A stretch of 63,818 nt of DNA, counting the filler, from Reticulomyxa filosa (lineage: Eukaryota; Protista; Foraminifera), in NCBI GenBank assembly GCA_000512085.1. It is 11 parts of 11 records of this genome, joined end to end, with 100 filler letters (N's around TTAATTAATTAA, not from the genome) between each part and the next. Parts side by side here need not be neighbours in the genome. Positions count along the whole stretch, not along the records: positions 1 to 15,537 come from ASPP01005067.1; 10 more parts are not named here. One strand, 5' to 3'. A program made the position numbers and the translations under genes. Of the stretch, positions 1 through 53,234 are shown piece by piece; position 1 is the first letter of the stretch; every line of letters begins with the position of its first letter. Under the pieces are notes generated by a model that saw only the letters and a list, made by a program, of their open reading frames with translations, searched no databases and was not told the DNA's origin.

Positions 1-156
1 CAATACCATATCCAATTCCATTTCCAATGCCACCATGCATACTGTCATTTGATATTTCACTAGTGGCAGACATGTTCGGAAGGTAGTTAACATGTCTGCC
101 TTACCATTAGATCGGATGCTTGGACCAATTCCATGTTGTGTATTTTGTCCAATCAT
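1..156 (-). CDS. ORF start directly downstream of the leader, running off the window edge (possible retroelement ORF1)
   Basis: ATG at 156; 52 open codons MIGQNTQHGIGPSIRSNGKADMLTTFRT... to position 1; no recognisable motif. Confidence 0.35.
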   Translation of the reverse strand, partial: MIGQNTQHGIGPSIRSNGKADMLTTFRTCLPLVKYQMTVCMVALEMELDMVL

Positions 157-655
157 GGCTTGCAGTAGAGCCGATTGGGGTAAAGACACCTTGCCTCGAC
201 CGTCCGGATTGCCTTCACAAGCCTTGTTATCAGCGAGTGAGTTTAGGTTTTGCCCGAGGTTCAGTAGAAATTACCCGACCCTCGAAGTTCTGCCAAACAC
301 AAAAAACAGGTATTTACCTCGAAAATGCCAATTTCCCGAAAGCTCCGAACATTTTTAAGATTAAACAAGGATCGATACTCTCTCACACAAGCCGACGTTG
401 CCAGTAAAAGATTTACTATCTCAGTTACCAGGATTTTGCACCACTGTACACTTAAAGCAACTTAGGACAAGATACGCTGTAAGTTTAAAAGCGCTTCCAC
501 CTCTCAAAGCACACAAGATGCTAAACCGACGACGAAACCCCCAAAAATGAACTGCAACAAAAAACGTTGCCAAATGGTAACAAAATAGTTTACAGTTACA
601 CTCCAGCAACAATCTCACAAAATCCAACTACTATAAAAAAATCTTTATATCACTA
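157..655 (-). repeat. Repeated ~500-nt structured leader, copy 1 (probable 5' UTR of a non-LTR retroelement)
   Basis: Colinear by eye with 35767-36250 (shared GCTTGCAGTAGAGCC, CGGATTGCCTTCACAAGC, GTTCAGTAGAA, CTTAAAGCAACTTAG, CAAAATCCAACTACTATAAAA). On the minus strand, similarity stops at the ATG at 156. Confidence 0.8.
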
Positions 656-794
656 TAAAAAAAATTTTTACTAGTTAAAAATTTTCTAGTTATAATTTTC
701 TTTCTTTCTTGGTCCGAGCTTTCTTGAGCTAGACGACGTTTGAAATACTTGATTTTCAAAATCTCCTTCAAAACTTAAGAGATGCCGAAGTATC

Positions 795-890
795 TTGACA
801 CTTCCAACCACAATTTCTTTCAAAATACAACTTTTTAATAAAAGTTAATATTAATGATGAAGTTGGTAAATATTAATTTTTTTTTTTTTC
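795..890 (-). repeat. Second repeated module, copy 1 (possible element 3' UTR)
   Basis: TTGACACTTCCAAC...CTTTCAAAATAC...AAAAGTTAATATTAATGATGAAG.TGGTAAATATTAATTTTTTTTTT also occurs at about 35389-35480. Confidence 0.75.
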
Positions 891-1079: not shown

Positions 1080-1186
1080 CAGTCTTCGAATATCTTGAAT
1101 ACTGATTGAATATCAGCAATATCTTCTTCAGGACCAATTCCTTTCACAACCACTTCTTTCGTCTTGAATTCGCTATCTGATCTAAT
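1080..1186 (-). pseudogene. Fragment resembling LINE ORF1/gag-like protein
   Basis: Minus-strand translation IRSDSEFKTKEVVVKGIGPEEDIADIQSVF resembles the VVIKG..(E/D)I pattern of non-LTR ORF1 proteins. Confidence 0.3.
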
Positions 1187-2164: not shown

Positions 2165-3267
2165 TTATAATGAACAACACTGACTTTGATTTTCCATTTT
2201 TTCATGTTGTTCAAGTTTTTGTGCTAGCAAATTATGTAATATTTCAAGAATTTTGTTGTTCGTGTTTTCTTGTTTGGCTTCAAGACTAGGTACGTTGATC
2301 GACATAACCAACCACAAAGCGGAAGAACTAGTTTTAATAACATTCGGTAGTATTTGGAAAAAAAAAAATTTCGATTTTCGACGTACTCTGGCCACACATA
2401 TTTGTCATAGTAAGCTTTAAACAAGTGAAATTTACTTGGGTCTCTCTTCTTTCGCTTCAATCGTCTTAAGAAGCAAAACTGGTCGTCCATCGAAAATAAA
2501 AAAATAATAATATTGCATAAGTTCATTAACTTTTCACTGTTTATTAACAGCAATCCCTCTAACAAAAGTACTGAGGTGACGTTGTCTCGAAACGCTTGGT
2601 TGCTCTCGCTGAGTTTGCTGTTTACGTGTTGTTGTATCCAACGTGTGACATCACTATACATTTTACCGTAATCACAGGCCTCTTTGCATTCCATATTACG
2701 ATAATTACCAATCTCTGGATCAAGAAAACAATTTTTAGTATTGAAATAGCTGTCACTGTGAAAAGCTTGACATTTAAAAGTTTGCGATTTAAAATTTAAA
2801 AATCGCGTTATGTAGTCCGTTAGGGTACTTTTTCCAACTCCTGAAGGACCAACGATGCCTATAGTTACGAAATTTTGGTTTTTGGACGATACACGCTTCA
2901 GGTTATTATAAAAAAGGTCGCAATCAAAGCCAATTTCCATGAACGGAATTGGCACGTGTTGCATGTATAATGTCATTTTTTTTTCACTACCATTCTTTGC
3001 AAATGTTAAAATTCTTTTTTGATTAGAGGCAAAAAACTTTGTGCACGCCTCAATGTCGTCAAATGAAAGTAAATATCGCAATTCATTGTTATTGTTGATT
3101 CGATCGTTTGGGAGGCTCATAAGCTGATTCTTTTCTGTATGGAAAAGACCAACTTGCATTTTGTTCTGTTTGTCAATATTACATCGCGTAAGAAGCTCTT
3201 CCACCGAAAATGCAGTAATATCGACATTTTTTAATAATAAATGTCTCGAATTTTGATCAGATATCAT
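2165..3267 (-). CDS. Nicotinamide-riboside-kinase/uridine-kinase-like P-loop kinase with N-terminal extension
   Basis: IGIVGPSGVGKST Walker A, HSDSYF, VLLLEGLLL, CFLRR, YYDKYVWPEY. The C-terminus probably continues in ORF 2165-2395 after a frameshift in the A-run near 2357-2368. Confidence 0.75.
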
Positions 3268-6415: not shown

Positions 6416-9400
6416 TTAAAATTTGCTTTGACCACACATCTCGCAGGCCAGGGTATCGGCTTCATTGATGAACTTGCATCTGCATTCCCATTGACCTTTT
6501 ATTCCGGTGATGTAAGGAGACGCATCGGGCTTGTGTTCATCGAAAAACGCGCCGACCGCGTCGTTGAAAAGTGTGACCGTGCTGCTCTGCTTCAAACCGT
6601 ATGTATGATGGACACAATCAAATAACAACAAAAAGATGGGATCAACATTAAATAAAATAAACAAAGAATACCGTCGTGGGGGCCTTGTCGTCCTTTTTTT
6701 CTGTTGGGATATCAAATAAGTTTGTTTCTTGCTGATTGATTGCAACAGTAGTATCTAACTGCAAAAAATCCGTAAATTCTCGTTCTGACTGTTGCTTGTC
6801 AGCAGAAGAATGTTTGAGTGGTACTGGTGGCGGTGACAATGGTAATATCGGTGACTGTGTTGACGCTGTCGACATTGTGGATACCGTTGGTGCTATTGGC
6901 ACTGTTGCTACTGTTGGTATTGTTGGTACTGGCGGTATTGGTGGTATTTGTGGTGGTATTTGTGATGGTATTGGTGGTGGTATTGGAGTTTTTCGTTGTG
7001 TTGGTGGCGGGGGTGGCGGCGGTGGAATTGGCACAGACTGTTGTCCAGTGTAGTTTACTGCTTGCACACGCTGTTTTGATCGTAATACTGTTGATAATGT
7101 CTGTTCACAGAACACATGAGAACAACAAACGTAAAGCACAAACGAGACCAACTTACCTCAATATATCATATATACATATATACACGCATGCGTACGCGCG
7201 TGCGTGCACGCACGAAAGGAGTGTTAGTTTGAAGGAACTGGACACTTTGATGAATTGCAAGCAGCGCAAGCAGTGGTAAAACTATGGTTGATGAGTGTGC
7301 AAACGGAGCACTCCCAAGCATATCCGCGGAGCACGGCGTTACTGTCCAAGGGAATAGCATTTTCTTCGAATCCAAACAGTGACGAGGAGTCTTTTTCTTT
7401 TTGGACTAATACCAAATATACTTCTTTCCGTTCTATTTTTAAAAAGCAATCAAACAAAATATGTACACATAAACGTATACACTTTCCCCCTTTTTTTTTT
7501 TAAAAAAAAAACCTATGTTGGTATGTTCCAGTTTCAATTTCTTCAATTGATTTCGAAGGTCTTCTATCGGCAATATGTCCCACATGACAGACTCCAAATA
7601 CAAATGAAAGAGACGACCGAACACAAAAGTATCGAAAGGGATCTTTCGATTGATGTCATACAAATCACGTTCGGTGTACCAGCGAAGATGCCTGTTATTC
7701 ATAAATTCTCCCTTGCTCTCCGGCCTTGTAAGCGACGGAAGCGAGCTATTCACATCGCTGCACTTTTCTAAAGACAAGATGCCAACCTCCAAATTTTTGA
7801 ACATCTTTACCATGTTGATCACGCCTTCCGTCACTATCCCGTGGTCCGCCGATTTCATTATGCTCCTCAGCGGCTGTGTCAAATGGATGATAAACCTTCG
7901 CAAGTGCTGGAAGCAGTTCTTCGGCGCCAACACCTCATTGAATGTCTGCAAGTTCGCAAATGTAAACGTATTGATTTCCAAGTATTCAATTTTGTAATGC
8001 GATATCATCTCAAACAAACGATTCTTCCAACAGCACAACCTTTCATTCACATATTTACATGCCATTCATACATTAACGAATAAATATACGTATATACACG
8101 TATAATTAGACAATATTTCTGATAAAAAAAAAAACTTTAGTCGATTGAATGCTTGCCCACAATGTTGAACGATAAGAAAGAGCAGATCCAAATGATGGTC
8201 GATATGTTGGTTTGGGGGATGCACCATTTCAATATACTCTAAATTGTCTTTGCAATGCGATAGCATAATCTTGATCAGCTTCTCCCAACAGTTGCGATCA
8301 CTTCGTCGTGTTTCAACAGCTTTGTTGCTGTTGCTGTTGCTATTGTTGTTGCTATTGCCATTGCCATTGCCATTGGCATTAGCATTGTTTGTATTCGCAC
8401 TACTGCCCGACCTGACTTTCTTCAACTTCTTGTTTTTGGCTTCCAATTCACTGATCAAACTTGTGTACCGCGTCTCGATTTCCTTCTGTCTCTTTCGTCT
8501 CTCTGTTGGTCGTGACTCCCAATAGACAGAGGATGATGAAAATGATAGTGATGATGATGGTGATGATGACGATGGTGATGATGACGATGAGGATGATGAC
8601 GATGAGGATGAAGACGAGGCCGAACGGAGCGATGTAAAGTCCAAATACAATTGCGACACATATGCAGGCAATGGCTGCAAACGCTCGGACGACAAAGGCA
8701 GACTATTGCTGTGCAGACTAAAAGAACTGGATGACATGGCCAAGTGGCACTTGGCCATAAAGTCCAATACAATAAAACGGCATTTCTTGACAAAGTCAAT
8801 GTTTTCGTCCAATCTCTTTTCTCGAAAGATATTCAACTTGTGTCGCAGCGCGTGAAACACATTGCCGCTCAACGTGATGGAAAACCCTTGCTTCAATTGC
8901 TGCATGCAATGAATCCCATAAAAATACTGACACGTACCCATCAATCTGTACACCTCCGACCGCTGCAAATACCCCATTATATTGTTTACCCACACGTCGT
9001 CGCCGATCGAACGTTCAATTGCATTGCTTCCTACCGATGCACCAAATATTTCTTCCAAAAGTCCGTACTCGGAAATTTTATCTGGATCTATCCTTTCTTT
9101 TTCGCCTTTTTCCGCTTCTAAATTTATATAAATATAAATATGTATATACAAATATATATATATACAAATAAATATACATATATGTATATTATATGTATAT
9201 TTATATTTATATAAACTTGCTTCATTTGCATAGCCATTATCACCGTAAGGACCCTTCGCTTCATAGTCGGCGAAATGATCCACTAGTACGTGCATGGCAG
9301 CGCGACACTCGTTTGTGTTGAAATGCTTCATCAAGTGCAGAAACTGGTACAACGTTTGCACCGGCGACTTTTCTATCAATTGGTGAATTACATGCTTCGC

Positions 9401-13118: not shown

Positions 13119-14276
13119 CTACCACTTCCAGAGACCAATTTCTCCATTTAAAGTATATGACATAATTGTATTTTCATCAGGTGAAATGCCTATCCCCGCT
13201 ATCGGACCAATATGTCCTTCTAATTTCTGTATTTCTTGTCCCGATTTTACATCCCATATTCGAATTGTTCGATCGTGTGAACATGAAACAATAATTTCAT
13301 TTGATGAAAATGCTACATCCGTTACAAAATTTAAATGCCCCACCAAAGTTTGTACTTTCATCCCTGACTTTATATCCCATACTGGAATTGTCTTCTCGTT
13401 TGAACAAGAAACAATATAGCGCCCATCAGGAGAAGGTCTAGCTCTGACAATGACCTTTACCTCTTCTTCTATTTCCATTACTTTTGCACCTGATTTTACA
13501 TCCCAAATATCGATGAATTGACAATCGGAACATGACACAAGAGTTTGCCCATCTGCCAAAAATTGTAAGCAATTTACCCAACTTCCATATCCATCTAAAA
13601 CTCGAATCACTTTTCCAGTATTGGAATCTCGTAGCTTTATATTCTCGGAGTATGCACTCGATACAGTGATAAGATGATCTGGTGAAAATTCTGTACATGT
13701 GATTCTACCCATGTCTCCTCTTAATACTCTTAATTGCAGTCTTGATTTCCAATCATACCAATAAATTTCATCAGCATTTGAACATAATATAACCATGTCA
13801 CCATCAGGTGAAAATTTGGCATCAAAAATATACATTGTGAATACTTCCAATTTTTGAAGCAGTTCTCCAGATTCCACATCCCAAATTTGAACATAATAAT
13901 CTAAACCGCATGAAACTATTTTAGTCCCATCCCGTGAGAAACGGGCATTCCTTATTTCATTTGAATGTCCTTGAAATAGTTTTGCTTGTTGGAAATATTT
14001 CGCCTATGCGTTTTTTCAATCAACAAATAAAAAAGATTTTAAAAGGACAAATAAATTTGCGAAAGGCTAAACATATGATGAAATTATTTTATCGAATTCA
14101 CAGATCCATCCTTTTCGTATTCTCGAAGATCGAACCCAATTACTTAATACAAAATTTATCTTTATTTTGGCCTATGTTATTTTTTTTCGTTGCCCTTTTA
14201 TGTTTTTTTTGGGTTGTACAACTTGAGTAATTACTAGATATATTGATTGTTCAGATTCTGTTGCTCCATTGATCAT
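13119..14276 (-). CDS. WD40-repeat protein with N-terminal 33-aa module; 3 exons
   Basis: Repeated GH/FSPDG/IRIWD motifs; upstream exons joined by phase-0 GT-AG introns. Confidence 0.85.
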
Positions 14277-33759: not shown

Positions 33760-35276
33760 ATTACCAGCTGTGAAATTAGTCTCGGAGAGGCTTTTCAAAA
33801 AAATTGGCATTCCCCATAAAAGACAAAGTTCTATCCATGATCATAGATAAAAGCACAGAGAGTCCTTACGTGCATGGAACAGAAACTAAGACGGACAAAA
33901 AGGTGCGCAAGTGAATCGAGCTGAGCAGTGAACAGTTTGTTCTGAAAAATTTTTGGTATTCCTCAGTCATAAACCCTATCTTAGAAAAAATCAGACTTGA
34001 ATTAGCTATGCATATTGAATACATTACAGCAGTGCCTTATAAGTTTTTAGTATATGAAGCAGGTTAGGTGCTTTATATTTTTTTTTTAATAATTGTTATT
34101 TAAAAAAATTGTGTCTGATATGAAGGAGGTTTTTTTAAGCCTAATATGGACACAAAGTGTCAAAAGGGACATTTTTTGACATTGTTGCTATCATTACCAA
34201 CCGAAGAAAGATTGGAAGGTGGTAGTTTGTTATTATCGTTTGAAGGTAAAAATGTTGAGTGGAATCCATCACAAGAAGAAAAAAATGACATAGCACCGCA
34301 AATGGATTGGATGGCGTTTTACACTGACATTCATCACGAAATTAGACCTGTCATCAAAGGACGACTCGTTATGATTGCTTTAAATTTGATTGTTCCGGAA
34401 GATTGTCAAGATAACTTTAAATACTTTAAGGTTCCGTCAAAAATTGAAACGTCGTCGATGTCTTTGAACGACAAACGAGTTTTGATGATTTTTTTTTTTT
34501 TTTACTTTAGTTCAATTCAGTGAGTGTTGTCAATTTGTTTACATTTTATAAAGGTGGATGAAACATTAGTACAATGCGTACATGTGCTATTTAACCTAGA
34601 TCTCCATCAAGATATTGTAAATTTGATCATTAAAATGGCAAATGACTATCGAGTCATTGAAGAAATTAAAAGACTGCTATCCGACAATGTGTATAATTAT
34701 TACAGCTGTCTAGAAAGCACAGCAGTGTGCATATTGTTCTCTCATTCCTACATTGGACACAAGACGGAAGAATGTGAATTTAATCGCGCAAATTTAAAAG
34801 GAAGTGATGTCGCCATTTACACAATACTGAGCCAATTGTTCCATTCTTTTGTAACTTGTTGCAAAATTAACGCAGTGATTGATGAATTTGAGTCTGATCA
34901 AGGTAATGACGATCTTAAAGGCACTTTTTGTTTGGTTGTTTTTTTATTAGCTAAAGTTGTTTCCTTGTATTTATGTCAATGGATTGATGTATGTTTGGAT
35001 TGACTAGACGAGACCGAAACAGATACACGTTACAACAGGAATATTATTTTGGGACACAGTTTGCTATAAACATTTCTTTTTTTCTAATGTATACTTAAAC
35101 TTTGTATTTTACCTCTCCTCCATATAAATAATATTGCATTAGAAAATTGTTTTACAATTCCAAATTGGCTTAATAATAATGACATGTACATTGATGACAA
35201 CTGTCGAATCTATGCAGCATATGTAAACAAAGATCAAACGTTATGTGATTCCAAACGTATTAGCGAAGCGGAAATA
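33760..35276 (+). pseudogene. 2OG-Fe(II) oxygenase-like gene with in-frame TGA and HxD->NxD change
   Basis: SPYVHGTETKTDKKVRK*IEL, PYKFLVYEA/GGFFKPNMDT, LEGGSL, WMAFYTDIHHEIRPVIKGRL. Confidence 0.65.
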
Positions 35277-35388
35277 NNNNNNNNNNNNNNNNNNNNNNNN
35301 NNNNNNNNNNNNNNNNNNNNTTAATTAATTAANNNNNNNNNNNNNNNNNNNNNNNNNNNNNNNNNNNNNNNNNNNNAATAAAAAAATA

Positions 35389-35480
35389 TTGACACTTCCA
35401 ACTGCAATCTCTTTCAAAATACTACTTTTTAAGAAAAGTTAATATTAATGATGAAGGTGGTAAATATTAATTTTTTTTTT
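35389..35480 (-). repeat. Second repeated module, copy 2
   Basis: Near-identical to 795-890. Confidence 0.75.
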
Positions 35481-35766
35481 CATTGTATTCGCAATGCTAA
35501 TTTAATCTCTTTATCGATTTCCAATCCACATCTGAATCAATTTCGGGTTAATTGGTTGCAAGAAGAATATTGATTGCTTAAACATTGATTTAATATCCGA
35601 TTTCATCAACATCAGATTTCTTATTCTGCAACATTTATTCGTTTTATTGCATACTTGAGCTATGTAATACAACTTGAAATGCTGAATATTGATTCTTTGC
35701 TTTCTTCGCAATGTCATCCATTAATCCACTATCTATTTGTCTTGTGCCATTTGTGTCGACGTCCAT

Positions 35767-36250
35767 TGCTTGCAGTAGAGCCAACTAAGATAAAAACACC
35801 TTGAATCAGCCTTCGGATTGCCTTCACAAGCATTGTTATCATATATTATGTTTCGGTTTTACCTGATGTTCAGTAGAAGTTACCCGATCATCGGAGTTCT
35901 GCCAATCACAAAAACTATTTATTTGCATCTAGATTGCCAATTTCTCAAATGCTTCGAACATTCTTAAGGTAAGCAATGTTCTACCTTCTCCCACAAGTCG
36001 ATCGTTTCCAATAAAAGTGTTACTATCCCAGTTACCATGAGTTTGCACGTCGGTGCTCTTAAAGCAACTTAGTACAAGATACTCGTGAAGTTTTAAAAAC
36101 ACTTCCATTTATCACAGTCCACACTACACAATTGCTGAACCGATGATGACAAACACAAATACGTTGCCAAAAACAGTAACAAAAGGGAAGAAGTCACATT
36201 CCAATCACAATATTACAAAATCCAACTACTATAAAATCTTTATATCATTT
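35767..36250 (-). repeat. Repeated structured leader, copy 2, followed by a decayed ORF (ATG at 35766)
   Basis: Homologous to 157-655; downstream reads MDVDTNGTRQIDSGLMDDIAKKAKNQYSAFQVVLHSSSMQ*. Confidence 0.8.
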
Positions 36251-37799
36251 TTAAAAAATTTTCAATTAGTTTCGAGTTGTTGACCTTGTGGACAAATGCT
36301 ATAATTGCTTTCAGTCTATTTTGTAAACTTTTAACAACGTTTTCCAAATGTTGTGTTGCTTTTTTTGCTCTTTTCCAATAAAAATATCAACAAAATTCAA
36401 ATGAAAATTCTATCCAATCTATTCAGTTCCAAATAATTCCACAAATAATAGTTCTTTCTCCAATCGAAAACATTCCTGAACGATACAAATTTGTACTTGG
36501 ACTATACTTATATTCGCTAGAAGTTGATCTTTTGAATAAAACATTATCTACAACGATATCATTACAGAAATTCCAAAATAATCATTAATCCAATATCACT
36601 GTAACATTATCTTCGTCAAGTGATCAATGTTTATTGACAACCCATCACTGGCAATTTATACAGTAAGTCAGGAAATACCGAATATTTAAAATGCCAAAAT
36701 TTTTATTTGTTCTTTAATATCTGTTTAGTTTGATCTATCCTCAAGGTCGCTAACATGTGAAAATTGTCAGCGTAATTAAACAAAAAAATATCCTTAAATA
36801 TGAACGTACAAAACTAAATATTTATCATTAGAAAACAGAAAAATTAAGCATGCAACACTTTTAAGATCAAAAATATTGCACCAAAAACTAAAAATGAGAC
36901 TTAAAAAAATCGAATAAATACAGAAAGTCGTGTGCCAACTGTCACTTTGACTTGCGCAAAGTGTAATACGAAAGTATTGCTCTGTAAGCGACTTGTCAGT
37001 AAAATAAAGGTTAATATAGTAAAGAGAAAGCGAGAATAAGTTTGTGGAGAAGTTTTAAGAAAAAGGTGTTCCAAGACCCAAATGAACTTTGACGTCAAAT
37101 AGTATGCCCTAAAAATTAAATTTGAATTTTTGGAAAATAGGCTGTATTCATTAACTGCTTTTATACGCCAGTTTTTTCTGAACATATTGTATCAATCCAT
37201 CATATTCACACTAATCCAAGATTATAACAATAAACTTAATTAAACCAATAATTTCACATAACCATTTATTACAGCGCTGTTTGCTGTCTTGTACAAACTC
37301 TTTACCTGTCAAAACCTAGTTCTAACAAAAGATATTCAGATTTGTATAAATGCTTGTGGCGTAGGCAGCATCACTTTTGAATGAAAAAATGATCTGTTAG
37401 TATAATCACGTAAATATGATTACTGTCAGTGTCTGTTCTGAGTACATCAAATGTTTATAAGGGCTTACGATAATTTTCGTAAACAAAGAAATGCATAGTT
37501 AGTATTGCTCCAAAAAATGCCGTAAAATAAGAGTCAAACGTCCAGTGAAAACATAAAGCTTGGCTTCCTTATTTGTTACTGTTAGGAAAAATCCAAATCG
37601 CTAGCGAATATCGCTTTGTGATTTTGCAAAAGTGATTTATTTGAGAAATCATAAAAATTGAATAAATGATAGCTATGTAAATTTTTGGAATTATGTATTA
37701 ATTCACCATTTTTTTCCCATTTTTGGAATTCAAACCTACAAATGGATAATTCACAATGATTAGTTACCATGTGCATAAACGATGCAGTTCTATTTAGTG

Positions 37800-38246
37800 T
37801 TATTTTTTTTCTTCAAATTGAATGCTTTTTACGTGCTCTAAACCATTGGACTTCAGCCAATTCTATACATGATATATGTTTGCATGTATGCAAAATTATT
37901 GAAGAAGAGAATAAAAAGAGTACATTGACACAATGTTGATAAATGTCGTATTCGCTCTCGCAAGGCAATGTCCCGTCGCTTTTATTTTTAAGAAACACTT
38001 CATTATACCATTTTTGAATACATATTTCATATTTCAATTTTTCTTGAGGACATGCGGAACAAGCCATTTTTGATGAATCATCAGTACTTCCAGATGTTGC
38101 TTGTTTTCCTTGTGAGTCTTGGAGCTGACGCTCTAAAATCCATAATTCCTCAACCAACTTACGTTCTTCGCCTTTGTTGTCCTTCATAAATCAAAATGAT
38201 CCAAAGAAATGCAAATACGAGAAAAAACAACTCTTACCTTCGACAT
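37800..38246 (-). CDS. MDM35: Mdm35/TRIAP1 twin-CX9C mitochondrial intermembrane-space protein; 3 exons
   Basis: CPQEKLKYEICIQKWYNEVFLKNK...PCESEYDIYQHCV. Confidence 0.75.
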
Positions 38247-49480: not shown

Positions 49481-49698
49481 TTTACCACAGTATAAGATAT
49501 ATAAATAGCTAATTCTTGTTGTATTCATTCTGTTTGCTGGCATTTCCACTTTTCCTGTTCGACTATTTTTTTAACTAGAGCTCAGCAAAGATTTTAACAG
49601 TATAACAAGCTTTTTTTTTTTTTTTGCTTGTTTCCTGTTTAAAGAATCATTAAGCTACTGAGAAGCGACCATAAACGGTCCCATTTGTTTGCGTTCAG

Positions 49699-51908
49699 AT
49701 GAAGACAAGTATCGGCAAGTTAGATGGAGTTATGCAAAATCTCTTTGAAACCTTGCCTTCTCTAACCGGACCCGCTTACACACAATGTGTGGTCCACAAT
49801 TACGAGCTCCTCCTTTGTGGGGGTTATCAAAATAATGAGTGTTACTCCTACCATACTCTCAAAAAGCAGTACAAGCGGATCTGCTCTTACCCAAAGACCT
49901 TCATCTTGCGCGAGCACTGTGTAATAAAGCTTGCGAGCAAAAATAAAAATGAAATAATCTTATTGTCTTTTGGTGGGTCAATCAATTGTACCTTGATGAT
50001 GAGATATGTAAGTGTTTGGAATGACGAAAAAAAAAAAGAAGAAATTGCAATTGAAGATATAAAACAAATCAATAGCAATAAATGGGTTCCTTTCACTGAT
50101 AATAATAACAATCCAATCAACATTGAAGAAAAGCAAGGTGACTATGCTGAAGCGCGTGCAATAGTTGGTGGAAGCAACAATACTTTGTTATTTATAACGT
50201 ATCCTCCACATGGTATTGATGTGTTTGATTTAGCCTCATTCCAGCGCGTGTATCGTGATAATTTGCCAACTGGATGGATCCGTTTTCATTGCTTCCTATC
50301 GAGAACAGGAAATGGATTGACAATAACGAATAAGAAGCATGAAATGCTGTTATTTTGTGGAAATGAAGGACTATCAATGGAATATGATGAAGATAACAAA
50401 ACATTTCAATTTAATAAATTACCAGTTGCTGCAACAATCAAACCTTATCATCGTTATGGCTGTGTGTATGTTGATGAATTCATCTTTTTTTTTGGTGGAG
50501 CAGATTATTGGAATGTATTAAAAACGATGCACGTATTTTCAATGCAAGAAATGCAATGGATAAAATTTGACAATTTTTTCTTCTCTCCAGTTTGTAACTG
50601 TATTGCAGTACTTAATGAATACAACGCAACGATACACCTCATTGGAGGACAAGATGGTAATGGTAATGAGTTGTCAGGACACATGAAACTGAATGTTAAG
50701 GACTTGAAAGGACAATGCGCAGGAGCTTATGAGATAAGAAGAGAGATTCAAGCTATGAAAAAAGAGATGAACAAATTGGGCCAAGAATTGCAAATAAAGA
50801 AATTGAAGAAAGTTGAGTTTTTTTTTTTTGCTACATTTATGGAAGAAAGGCTTATAAAAATAAAAAAATAGAAGCGAGACAATATTCAAATGATAACCAC
50901 AAACTGGCATCGGCTATTGTTCGTCAGAATGTCTTGGATTACTGACTTGAGCACTCTTATTTCGCGATATGTTTTGGTATATTATGCTGTCGCTTATCTT
51001 ACAACACACTCGAAATGTAAATACATAAATAGGTAAGATACTTCAAATCATTAAAAGTAATCCAAGGGCACACCGATTATGTCAATAGTGTAAAATTTTC
51101 ACCAGACGGTTGCAAGTTTGTTTCATCTTCGAATGATAAAACAGTAATTATATGGGATGTTGCGTCAGGAAAACAAATTCAAATTTTGAACAGTCATTCA
51201 AAAGCAGTTAAATATGCACAATTTTCACCAGATGGAAATATGATTATGTCTTGTTCAATGGATAAAACTATTCGATTATGGGATGTGAAATTAGAAAAAG
51301 AAATAAAGATTCTGCAGCATGAAAGAGGTGTCAGAAGTGCTCATCTTTCGCCGGATGGAACTACTATTGTCTCAAGTTCATGTGACAAAACAATTCAATT
51401 ATGGGATGTACATTCTGGGAACATGGCGAAAAAAATTTCATATAATGCAAATAATGTGCGATTTTCACCAGATGGTAAAAAGTTTATATCATCATCTGAT
51501 GATAACTACATTATTTTGTGGAATGTTCAAACAGGAGAACTTATAACATCACTAGTACAACATGCTTCTGCAATTAGAGCACAATTTTCTCACGATAGTC
51601 AATATATTGTGTCTTGTTCTGGTGGAAATATAATTCGAATATGGGATGTCGATACAAGAAAAGAAATAAAAAAATTAAAAGGGCATAAAGACAAAGTAGC
51701 TGATGCAATATTTTTTCCAGATTCTCAAACTATTGTATCATGTTCAGATGATAAAACAATTCGTTTATGGGACTTGCAACTGGGGATTGGGATGCAGAAA
51801 TTGATAGGACATACTGATTACGTAACAGATGTGGATGTTTCACCAGATGGTAATACAATTGTGTCTGCTTCTAATGATAAGACGATACAGTTGTGGAGAA
51901 TATTTTAA
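49699..51908 (+). CDS. Kelch-like propeller + coiled coil + 33-aa module + WD40 propeller; 3 exons
   Basis: LLLCGG..CYSYH, AIVGG, FFFGG, IHLIGG Kelch motifs. Phase-0 introns link to VRYFKSLKVIQGH..FSPDG..WD repeats. Confidence 0.85.
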
Positions 51909-52069
51909 AACTTAATTTTTAACAAATAATTTAGTAACATAAAAAATGAAATAAAGCAGTTAGTTGGATTTTTTTTTGAACATTTATTAATTTTGCAAGC
52001 AATTACCAAACTTTTTTTTTTTTTTTTTTTTCTTCACTTGAAAAGTTTCAAACTTTTTTATACTTCATG

Positions 52070-53234
52070 TCATCCCCATAATCGGATTGTTTGATCCCAA
52101 GACCATGACACAATCGTATATCCGTCTGGTGAAAATTGTGCTCCGAGTACAATATTTATATGACCTTTCAATTTTTGCAACTCTTGACGTGATTTAATAT
52201 CTAACACTAGAATTGTTTTGTCCCAATGGCACGTTATTATAGAGGAGCCATCAGGTGAAAATTTTGCTGTGGACATAAGATGTGCAACACCGAACCATTT
52301 TTGTACCTCTTTACCAGATACGATATCCCATATCCGAATTGTTTCATCTTGAAGGCATGCAACGGCATAACAACCATCTGGAGAAAATTGTATTCCTCTA
52401 CCAAGTCTTGCATTTAGCGTTATTATTTTAGTTTCTTTTCCTGATAGTACATCCCACAATCGAATTGTTTTGTCAAAAGAACATGATATAATTGTATGTC
52501 CATCAGGTGAAAATTGAACACCTGTCACAACATCAGAGTGTCCTTGTAATTGCATAATCTCAGTTGTTACTGCAATATTCCATATCCTGATGGTTTTATC
52601 ATAGCTGCTTGAGGCAAGTAATTTGCCATCTGGAGAAAAGGCGACACAAGACACAGACTGGACATGTCCATCAAATTTTTTTTCTTCCCGTCCCGACTTG
52701 ACATTCCATATCCGAACTATTTTGTCAGATGAACAGGACGCTATAGTAAAACCATCTGGTGAAAATTTTACGTCTAATACACTACCAGAACACCCTTGAA
52801 ATGATCGAAGCTGCCGTCCTGATTCAACACTCCATAATCGAATTATCGCATCGGTCGAACAGGATACAATTGTGTTACTGTCTGGTGAGAAGTCAATGCT
52901 TGTCACATGAATTAGATGTCCTTTAAATGCTCGTAACTCCTTAAACTCTTTCATCTATGTAGGAATCAGTGCGTGTTATTTATATCCGACAATTCGAATA
53001 GAAACATAGAAAGTGCATCAAACATATTTGGTAATGATTTTGTTGAAATCTTTAATCCATCCACGCTTGATATTCACGGACCTAATCCAATGCTCTACAA
53101 TACTTTCAACTTTTGTTTCATTCTATTTTTTGTGTTTTTGTTTTGTTTTTCTTAGTTAGCAGGTCATTGTTTTAGTAATAACCATTGAGACAACGCCTTC
53201 TATTGCACTAGATTTTGCTGATTGCTTATTCATC
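52070..53234 (-). CDS. WD40-repeat protein with N-terminal 33-aa module; 3 exons
   Basis: Seven GH/FSPDG/IRxW repeats; upstream exons MNKQSAKSSAIEGVVSM and NETKVESIVEHWIRSVNIKRGWIKDFNKIITKY. Confidence 0.88.

Follow-up and report, generated by a model that had tools for sequence, protein, structure and literature searches.

A repeated leader ending at an AUG in the foraminiferan Reticulomyxa filosa, a possible structured 5' UTR of a decayed LINE-like retroelement family

Two diverged copies of a leader of about 500 nucleotides (nt), each closed by a minus-strand AUG, lie within the 63,818 nt of Reticulomyxa filosa DNA analysed here (the window). The explanation we favour, and which we put a little below an even chance, is that this repeat served a LINE-like retroelement family, now decayed, as its structured 5' UTR, with the last ~135 nt predicted to fold against the AUG. 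We read the repeat as a LINE-like leader because of the repeat itself, an AUG kept in three copies, a helix abutting that AUG, the depletion of upstream AUGs in one copy, an ORF1-like fragment, and a second repeat (X) present at both loci.

Self-blastn of the window paired positions 154-676 with 35764-36271, both on the minus strand, over 533 columns at 74.3% identity (E = 4e-88). The original prediction of two copies with common boundaries was correct as to the repeat; the similarity extends ~24 A/T-rich bases past the 5' end proposed there. That the similarity ends at an AUG was confirmed in both copies (156-154 in A and 35766-35764 in B), and this AUG is also kept in a third copy represented by the protein P0001 (see below). 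The parts of the repeat are as follows.

157-652, minus strand: leader copy A, a 496-nt core with one upstream AUG
35767-36247, minus strand: leader copy B, a 481-nt core with eight upstream AUGs
653-676, minus strand: A/T-rich extension of the common block, 5' of core A (counterpart in B, 36248-36271)
617-652, minus strand: invariant 5' block of leader A, 33 identical columns spanning a 3-nt indel (in B, 36215-36247)

The window consists of joined contigs, so copies A and B are on different contigs and the 35-kb spacing between them is meaningless. Each of the 10 joints, located between 15538 and 60430, has paired runs of 44 N flanking a 12-nt linker (TTAATTAATTAA, at 35321-35332). An nhmmer profile of both leaders found only A and B in the 64-kb window. 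Outside the window, scans of viral contigs (0, 18, 0, and 0 loci), metagenome contigs (27 loci), and prokaryote genomes (0 loci) gave no further leader copy; in a profile search, all 45 viral and metagenome pattern-scan loci matched the seed only. Blastn of a phage collection with the leader gave no match. According to PMC13746701, the R. filosa assembly has a size of 101.9 Mb, is split into 50,809 scaffolds, and contains 30.5% repeats. Two copies in a single 64-kb window of unordered contigs would imply at least tens of leader copies genome-wide. Deletions, stops, and indels have left both copies dead, and B is probably the more decayed of the two.

At the 5' end of the alignment, the first 36 columns contain a run of 33 identical columns (p = 0.02 for the longest run); the number of long identical runs overall was not in excess (p = 0.86). 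This invariant block may represent a promoter or start region. A TATAAA-like motif, originally taken to mark the shared 5' end, is present there, and in B an upstream frame of 48 codons also terminates within it.

Downstream of the AUG, the two loci carry the following frames.

1-156, minus strand: ORF opened by the AUG of copy A, reaching the window edge after 52 codons without a stop and matching P0001
35467-35766, minus strand: frame opened by the AUG of copy B, with its first stop after 40 codons and broken beyond

A and B could not be aligned directly after the AUG (109/300 shuffles), and their ORFs had been regarded as dissimilar. P0001, a hypothetical protein of R. filosa, shows them to be related. 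It matches frame 270-1 of the window at 80%, aligns to A from 222 to 1 at 67% (E = 8e-27), and in residues 83-90 agrees with B at 35758-35735 in 7 of 8 residues, 8 nt past B's AUG and in a different frame (E = 0.21 window-wide; 0/200 local shuffles). Because this third copy joins the start of A to the start of B, the sharp edge is an indel and the downstream ORFs belong to one family. According to these alignments, ~60 codons directly after the AUG are either missing from B or were gained by A and P0001. The apparent higher conservation of the leader compared with its ORF is therefore partly an indel effect. P0001 and P0003 (see below), both from R. filosa, were the sole protein relatives recovered. 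A protein search with P0001 returned only P0001 itself, and none of its Atlas neighbours scored above 0.77; P0002 was dismissed as a chance hit, and the plus-strand frame 53-355 had no match in the protein search. Just past copy A's AUG, an inverted repeat (63-104, minus strand; weak Rfam hit, E = 0.28) sits in a 45-nt GT...AG stretch. Since P0001 lacks six residues at this place, the inverted repeat could have arisen by local inverted duplication or represent a small intron.

We analysed RNA folding for each leader alone and for the pair. Single leaders behaved like their shuffles on both strands (z = -0.08, -0.03, 0.32, and 0.26), and no 80-nt window of the leaders fell below z = -1.8. The lower minus-strand energy thus reflects composition, given that single copies are no better folded than shuffles on either strand. 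The two-sequence consensus energy was -66 kcal/mol for the minus strand and -28 kcal/mol for the plus strand, and most of this is accounted for by the nulls. Compared with two nulls, the whole-length consensus had z = -1.8 (3/60) and -1.3 (5/60). It showed 5 two-sided changes vs. 6.9 and 7.5 in the nulls, covariation over the whole leader thus being no higher than in controls, and the count of helices common to both copies was at the level of shuffles.

The signal that exceeds the controls appears confined to the last ~135 nt of the leader. Columns 361-519 gave z = -2.7 on the minus strand (0/150 and 1/150 controls) and z = -2.0 and -1.9 on the plus strand. When 11 windows were compared, the last one alone reached z = -2.8 (1/120), corresponding to ~0.07 family-wise; at this window-corrected level, the last 135-159 columns seem to co-fold better than controls. 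Folding one copy and scoring the other gave mixed results: for broken pairs in the 3' domain, 23/1000 and 84/1000, and for the kept fraction in the middle region, 6/1000 in one direction and 464/1000 in the other. The predicted elements are listed below.

157-223, minus strand: predicted AUG-proximal domain of A, terminal helix 223-216/164-157 around stems 201-196/174-169 and 190-187/182-179
35767-35832, minus strand: predicted AUG-proximal domain of B, terminal helix 35832-35825/35774-35767, inner stems within 35811-35779
253-285, minus strand: predicted hairpin of 10 pairs, one of them changed on both sides and another on one side (in B, 35894-35862)
423-462, minus strand: predicted stem 462-456/429-423 with inner hairpin 449-438 (in B, 36069-36030)

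The terminal helix, which ends at position -1 of the AUG, is the strongest among the 229 helices common to both copies. None of the 144 other positions has an equally strong helix, and in 1000 column shuffles one as strong arose within 3 nt of the AUG 24 times. As originally described, this helix is present in both copies and covaries from G-C to U-A at -1. The nested stems and the other helices named together with it do pair in A and B, but with one-sided G-U changes only, two-sided change being limited to the terminal helix. One of them, the UUCGA/UCGGG hairpin, forms in both copies but competes with the longer 10-pair hairpin (285-253), which has a two-sided change of its own. The stem 462-456/429-423 is almost invariant and consequently has no covariation support. 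Our working model comprises 39 pairs, all kept in A and B, with 2 changed two-sided and 6 one-sided; as it was drawn from the two leaders themselves and was matched by 142 of 500 shuffles, it is not independent proof. Between P0001 and A, 6 of the first 23 residues differ, none of them in codons of either strand of the terminal helix, which is consistent with a kept helix, not significant, and blind to silent changes.

Many of these values would also be obtained from a dispersed repeat or segmental amplification that drifts neutrally, in which the helices are chance pairings in a G/U-rich pair of sequences at 74% identity and the AUG edge is an indel breakpoint. The single-copy z-scores near 0, the two-sided changes at or below null, the helix counts at null, the null level of long identical runs, and the indel that explains the edge all agree with neutral drift. 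We nevertheless consider it unlikely, because three partly independent signals meet at the same AUG: the helix at -1, the consensus fold of the 3' part, and a depletion of AUGs that is restricted to the minus strand.

This depletion was assessed after it had been noticed, and the values are thus post hoc. Copy A contains 1 upstream AUG vs. 6.2 expected (p = 0.004), making AUG the most depleted of the 64 trinucleotides, and only 6 of 1148 real windows contained as few. Copy B contains 8 upstream AUGs vs. 11.9 expected (p = 0.08), and the plus strands of the leaders showed no AUG depletion. The sole upstream AUG of copy A is also present in B. One short frame was recorded.

314-352, minus strand: short upstream ORF with an AUG kept in both copies, 12 codons in A and 10 codons in B (35961-35929)

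This short ORF could be regulatory. The scarcity of AUGs in copy A suggests a scanned 5' UTR. Along with the AUG kept in three copies and the folded 3' domain, it upholds the original assignment of the repeat as a minus-strand 5' leader.

We also considered that the repeat would once have encoded protein, most likely on the plus strand across 203-361, and diverged under coding selection before it broke and decayed. The block on which this explanation is based is the following.

203-361, no strand assigned: ungapped 159-nt block with differences distributed 6/19/7 by codon phase (in B, 35812-35970)

The phase bias is significant in this block (p = 0.002) and when combined over 7 blocks (p = 0.024), and pN/pS in the best frame is 0.47 (p = 0.03). 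The check for coding sequence was therefore weakly positive, but it weakened to p = 0.14 over six frames, and the bias is seen in 1 of the 7 blocks only. Over the whole alignment, the phases are unbiased (37/30/37), 7 of the 9 indels between the leaders are not multiples of 3, both candidate frames have a common stop in the best-kept block, and Pfam, NCBIfam, and PHROGs gave no family for the periodic frames of 203-361. On balance, we regard a coding origin as rather improbable.

No Rfam model reached its gathering score anywhere in the window, and the leaders gave no match even with E values up to 10 admitted, in agreement with the original view that the leader is not a known RNA family. RNase P/MRP, group I/II intron, and telomerase RNA were dropped as candidates, there being no Rfam signal down to the same E value. 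An HDV-like core, searched with a custom descriptor run without positive control, and a hammerhead motif gave 0 hits in the four strands of the two copies. ARAGORN detected 0 tRNA genes in the window. These searches bear on the idea that the repeat is a self-standing structured RNA (a self-cleaving ribozyme with a new fold, a SINE body, or a small RNA gene) that merely happens to lie before an ORF. Its defined ends and invariant 5' block would fit such an RNA, and there is a precedent in R2, which carries a 5' ribozyme and has short, internally deleted derivatives, as reported in PMC3414825. Like the HDV-like ribozyme of R2 and SIDE, the leader would be a structured RNA at a non-LTR 5' end with short deleted derivatives. 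In contrast to them, it has no HDV-like core, is not located in rDNA, and stands in an ORF1-type rather than single-ORF context. Since there is also no Rfam match, hammerhead core, or tRNA head, and all three copies lead into the AUG and related ORFs, we give a separate RNA only a slim chance.

The proposed membership in a LINE-like family is plausible on indirect grounds, namely an ORF1-like fragment located 430 nt upstream of copy A on the same strand, and repeat X at both loci. Neither endonuclease nor reverse transcriptase (RT) was seen in 12 frames.

1103-1180, minus strand: 26-residue ORF1-like fragment, 92% identical to P0003, a hypothetical protein of R. filosa
792-886, minus strand: repeat X at locus A, upstream of leader A, beginning at an A-run
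35386-35480, minus strand: repeat X at locus B, separated from the upstream leader B by 284 nt and running up to a contig gap

The Atlas neighbours of P0003 by features were arthropod hypothetical clusters (0.92), DUF4780 (0.90), and PRE_C2HC (0.89; 14% of members), and those by structure, under the tool's bar, included PHD and PRE_C2HC clusters. The DUF4780 and PRE_C2HC families accompany LINE ORF1, and judging from these neighbours the fragment 1103-1180 looks LINE ORF1-like. Relatives of P0003 were found neither in viral contigs nor among PDB sequences, and its single-sequence fold had a pLDDT of 32. In the 12 frames of 1-2300 and 35377-37900, 0 Pfam families were detected; ORF1, zinc-knuckle, endonuclease, and RT families were absent from the matches of these frames, P0001, and P0003 in Pfam and from those in NCBIfam. 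The DNA downstream of the leaders spans just 156 nt in A and 390 nt in B. Weak rows in PHROGs, NCBIfam, and Pfam (E 0.001-0.1) were judged to be chance. A minus-strand frame interrupted by five stops (689-1225) takes in the ORF1-like fragment and X and finishes 12 nt short of the common block, and near 1000-960 a zinc-knuckle-like motif of broken spacing (C-X2-C-X5-H-X4-C) was noted by eye, with no Pfam hit.

The two copies of X are 92.6% identical (self-blastn) and are the only ones in the window. At both sites, X starts with an A-run on the minus strand and is preceded by unrelated sequence; the X pair is much younger than the leader pair. Read on the minus strand, locus A consists of the ORF1-like fragment, X, 115 nt, the leader, and the AUG, while locus B consists of a 48-codon frame ending within the common block, the leader, the AUG, 284 nt, X, and the gap. 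These orders suggest leader-ORF units in tandem, an arrangement that is unproven. HeT-A and TART form head-to-tail arrays. Locus A resembles them in that ORF1-like sequence is followed by another leader; it differs in having no poly(A) at the junction and no telomeric position evident here.

Comparisons of the flanks were weak. P0003 scored against the frame after B's AUG at 5/200 locally and 276/2000 globally. The downstream part of B is weakly similar to A 1456-1164 (6/1000 and 6/736), and the upstream flank of B scored equally well against A 1456-1164 and the downstream part of B. The flank-flank DNA similarity was reached by 6, 7, and 3 of 1102 real windows and by 32, 38, and 6 of 1000 block shuffles. 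A tandem ORF1 unit, hinted at by these pairwise scores, was not borne out, as a profile of any two flanks did not find the third. The reading of the AUG frame as ORF1 is likewise unproven at the sequence level. The upstream flanks were also inspected as possible C-termini of LINE ORF2; this was done by eye only, and no support was found.

By eye, no target-site duplication was seen in 40 nt of flank around the leaders. This matters for a further explanation, the long terminal repeat of an LTR retrotransposon, placed after one ORF and before another. A length of ~490 nt, a TG start, an end at or next to CA, the TATA-like motif, and a TGG two bases after copy B are features of that kind. However, in addition to the missing duplication, inspection by eye showed no upstream purine tract and no TGG after copy A; what follows is an AUG instead of a primer site, and the nearby protein fragment looks like LINE ORF1. 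An LTR is accordingly very improbable.

A possible role of the leader in ribosome entry was also considered. The original prediction pointed to HCV-type (type IV) IRESs, with which the leader would share structure near the AUG and a pseudoknot that can be drawn. This comparison was not supported. HCV-type IRESs use an apical GGG loop (IIId) according to PMC7178104, whereas the only GGG common to both copies (276-274) belongs to a predicted helix or sits at its base and not in an apical loop, and Rfam gave no IRES match. Moreover, as PMC7178104 describes it, HCV has its AUG within SL IV, an element that unfolds and that is preceded by a double pseudoknot; in the leader, the AUG would be flush with the enclosing helix. 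Scanning would be at least equally compatible with the small number of upstream AUGs.

In a different version, the leader would sit between the ORFs of elements arrayed head to tail and serve for internal ribosome entry, recruiting the ribosome by a pseudoknot of the 5' block and the AUG-proximal domain. For this, leader A follows the ORF1-like fragment and X on the same strand, and leader B follows the stop of the 48-codon frame and precedes X. In addition, the invariant 5' block is complementary to the AUG-proximal domain: 633-621 could pair with 210-204 and 168-163, forming 13 pairs in both copies that cross the terminal helix. IRES activity upstream of ORF1 was reported for mouse L1 (PMC3592465), where the region resembles the present leader in preceding ORF1 directly and in its proposed role in initiation; no sequence link between the two was found. 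Against this version, the 13 long-range pairs show one one-sided and zero two-sided changes, such helices are equally common in shuffles, and P0001, when back-mapped from protein, implies a change at one of the paired positions. The tandem unit failed the three-way profile test, neither an Rfam IRES match nor a shared apical GGG loop was found, and few upstream AUGs are what scanning needs. We therefore judge an entry element in arrays unlikely. The full form of this idea is slightly more doubtful: a hitherto undescribed RNA of 500 nt serving ribosome entry in a foraminiferan retroelement family, situated between ORFs in head-to-tail arrays, with its 5' block pseudoknotted across 450 nt with the AUG-proximal domain and its last helix at -1, would be a new IRES fold outside viruses.

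If the repeat is instead the structured 5' UTR of a LINE-like family, as we favour, the invariant 5' block would act as an internal Pol II promoter, and each inserted copy would then carry its own start. Internal promoters are held by most characterised non-LTR 5' UTRs, ORF1 of non-LTR elements is thought to be reached by scanning, and the human L1 5' UTR is reported to be cap-dependent, all as summarized in PMC2881922. After loading at the cap, ribosomes would scan a leader poor in AUGs. Folding of the last ~135 nt would produce a domain that closes one base ahead of the start codon, and the terminal helix would have to open before the AUG enters the mRNA channel. The amount of ORF1 (gag-like) protein made may be controlled through this opening.

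The 5' UTRs of two-ORF non-LTR elements (L1 and the Jockey/I group, e.g., Hebe) are like the leader in running several hundred nt to an AUG, in a conserved 5' end, in nearby ORF1-like sequence, and in internally deleted copies (PMC2861651, PMC2881922); the account of Hebe in PMC2861651 describes non-LTR copies that decayed via internal deletion and kept their 5' ends intact. Unlike these elements, the loci studied here show no RT or endonuclease, and no poly(A) or target duplication was assigned. Furthermore, PMC2881922 describes non-LTR 5' UTRs as variable, whereas the present leader is 74% kept between copies, with a helix predicted at -1.

In the open-access literature searched, hardly anything has been described of foraminiferan structured RNAs and retroelements. 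We found no description of the leader family there; the repeat library of the genome paper may list the family. Within the open-access literature, searches for Reticulomyxa retroelements returned only unrelated papers and nothing on non-LTR retrotransposons. If the fold holds over many copies, the leader would define a new RNA family controlling ORF1 initiation and provide a natural test for the question of scanning vs. internal entry in LINE leaders; a multi-copy family would supply the covariation data for free. If the fold fails, the leader would be an ordinary repeat in a very repetitive genome.

Several host genes were recognized near the two loci: a member of the uridine kinase/PRK family at 2224-3267 (minus strand; E = 2e-8), a fragment of a 2OG-Fe(II) oxygenase gene at 34119-34523 (plus strand; E = 3e-4), and a gene for a UPF0203 protein at 37813-38190 (minus strand; E = 7e-9). 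An AT-rich imperfect palindrome of 100 nt (9120-9218) lies within a gene region. By eye, the window also contains WD40-repeat-like ORFs and a kelch-like ORF (13119-14003 and 49675-52954), and two of the WD40-like ORFs are convergent at 51908-52070.
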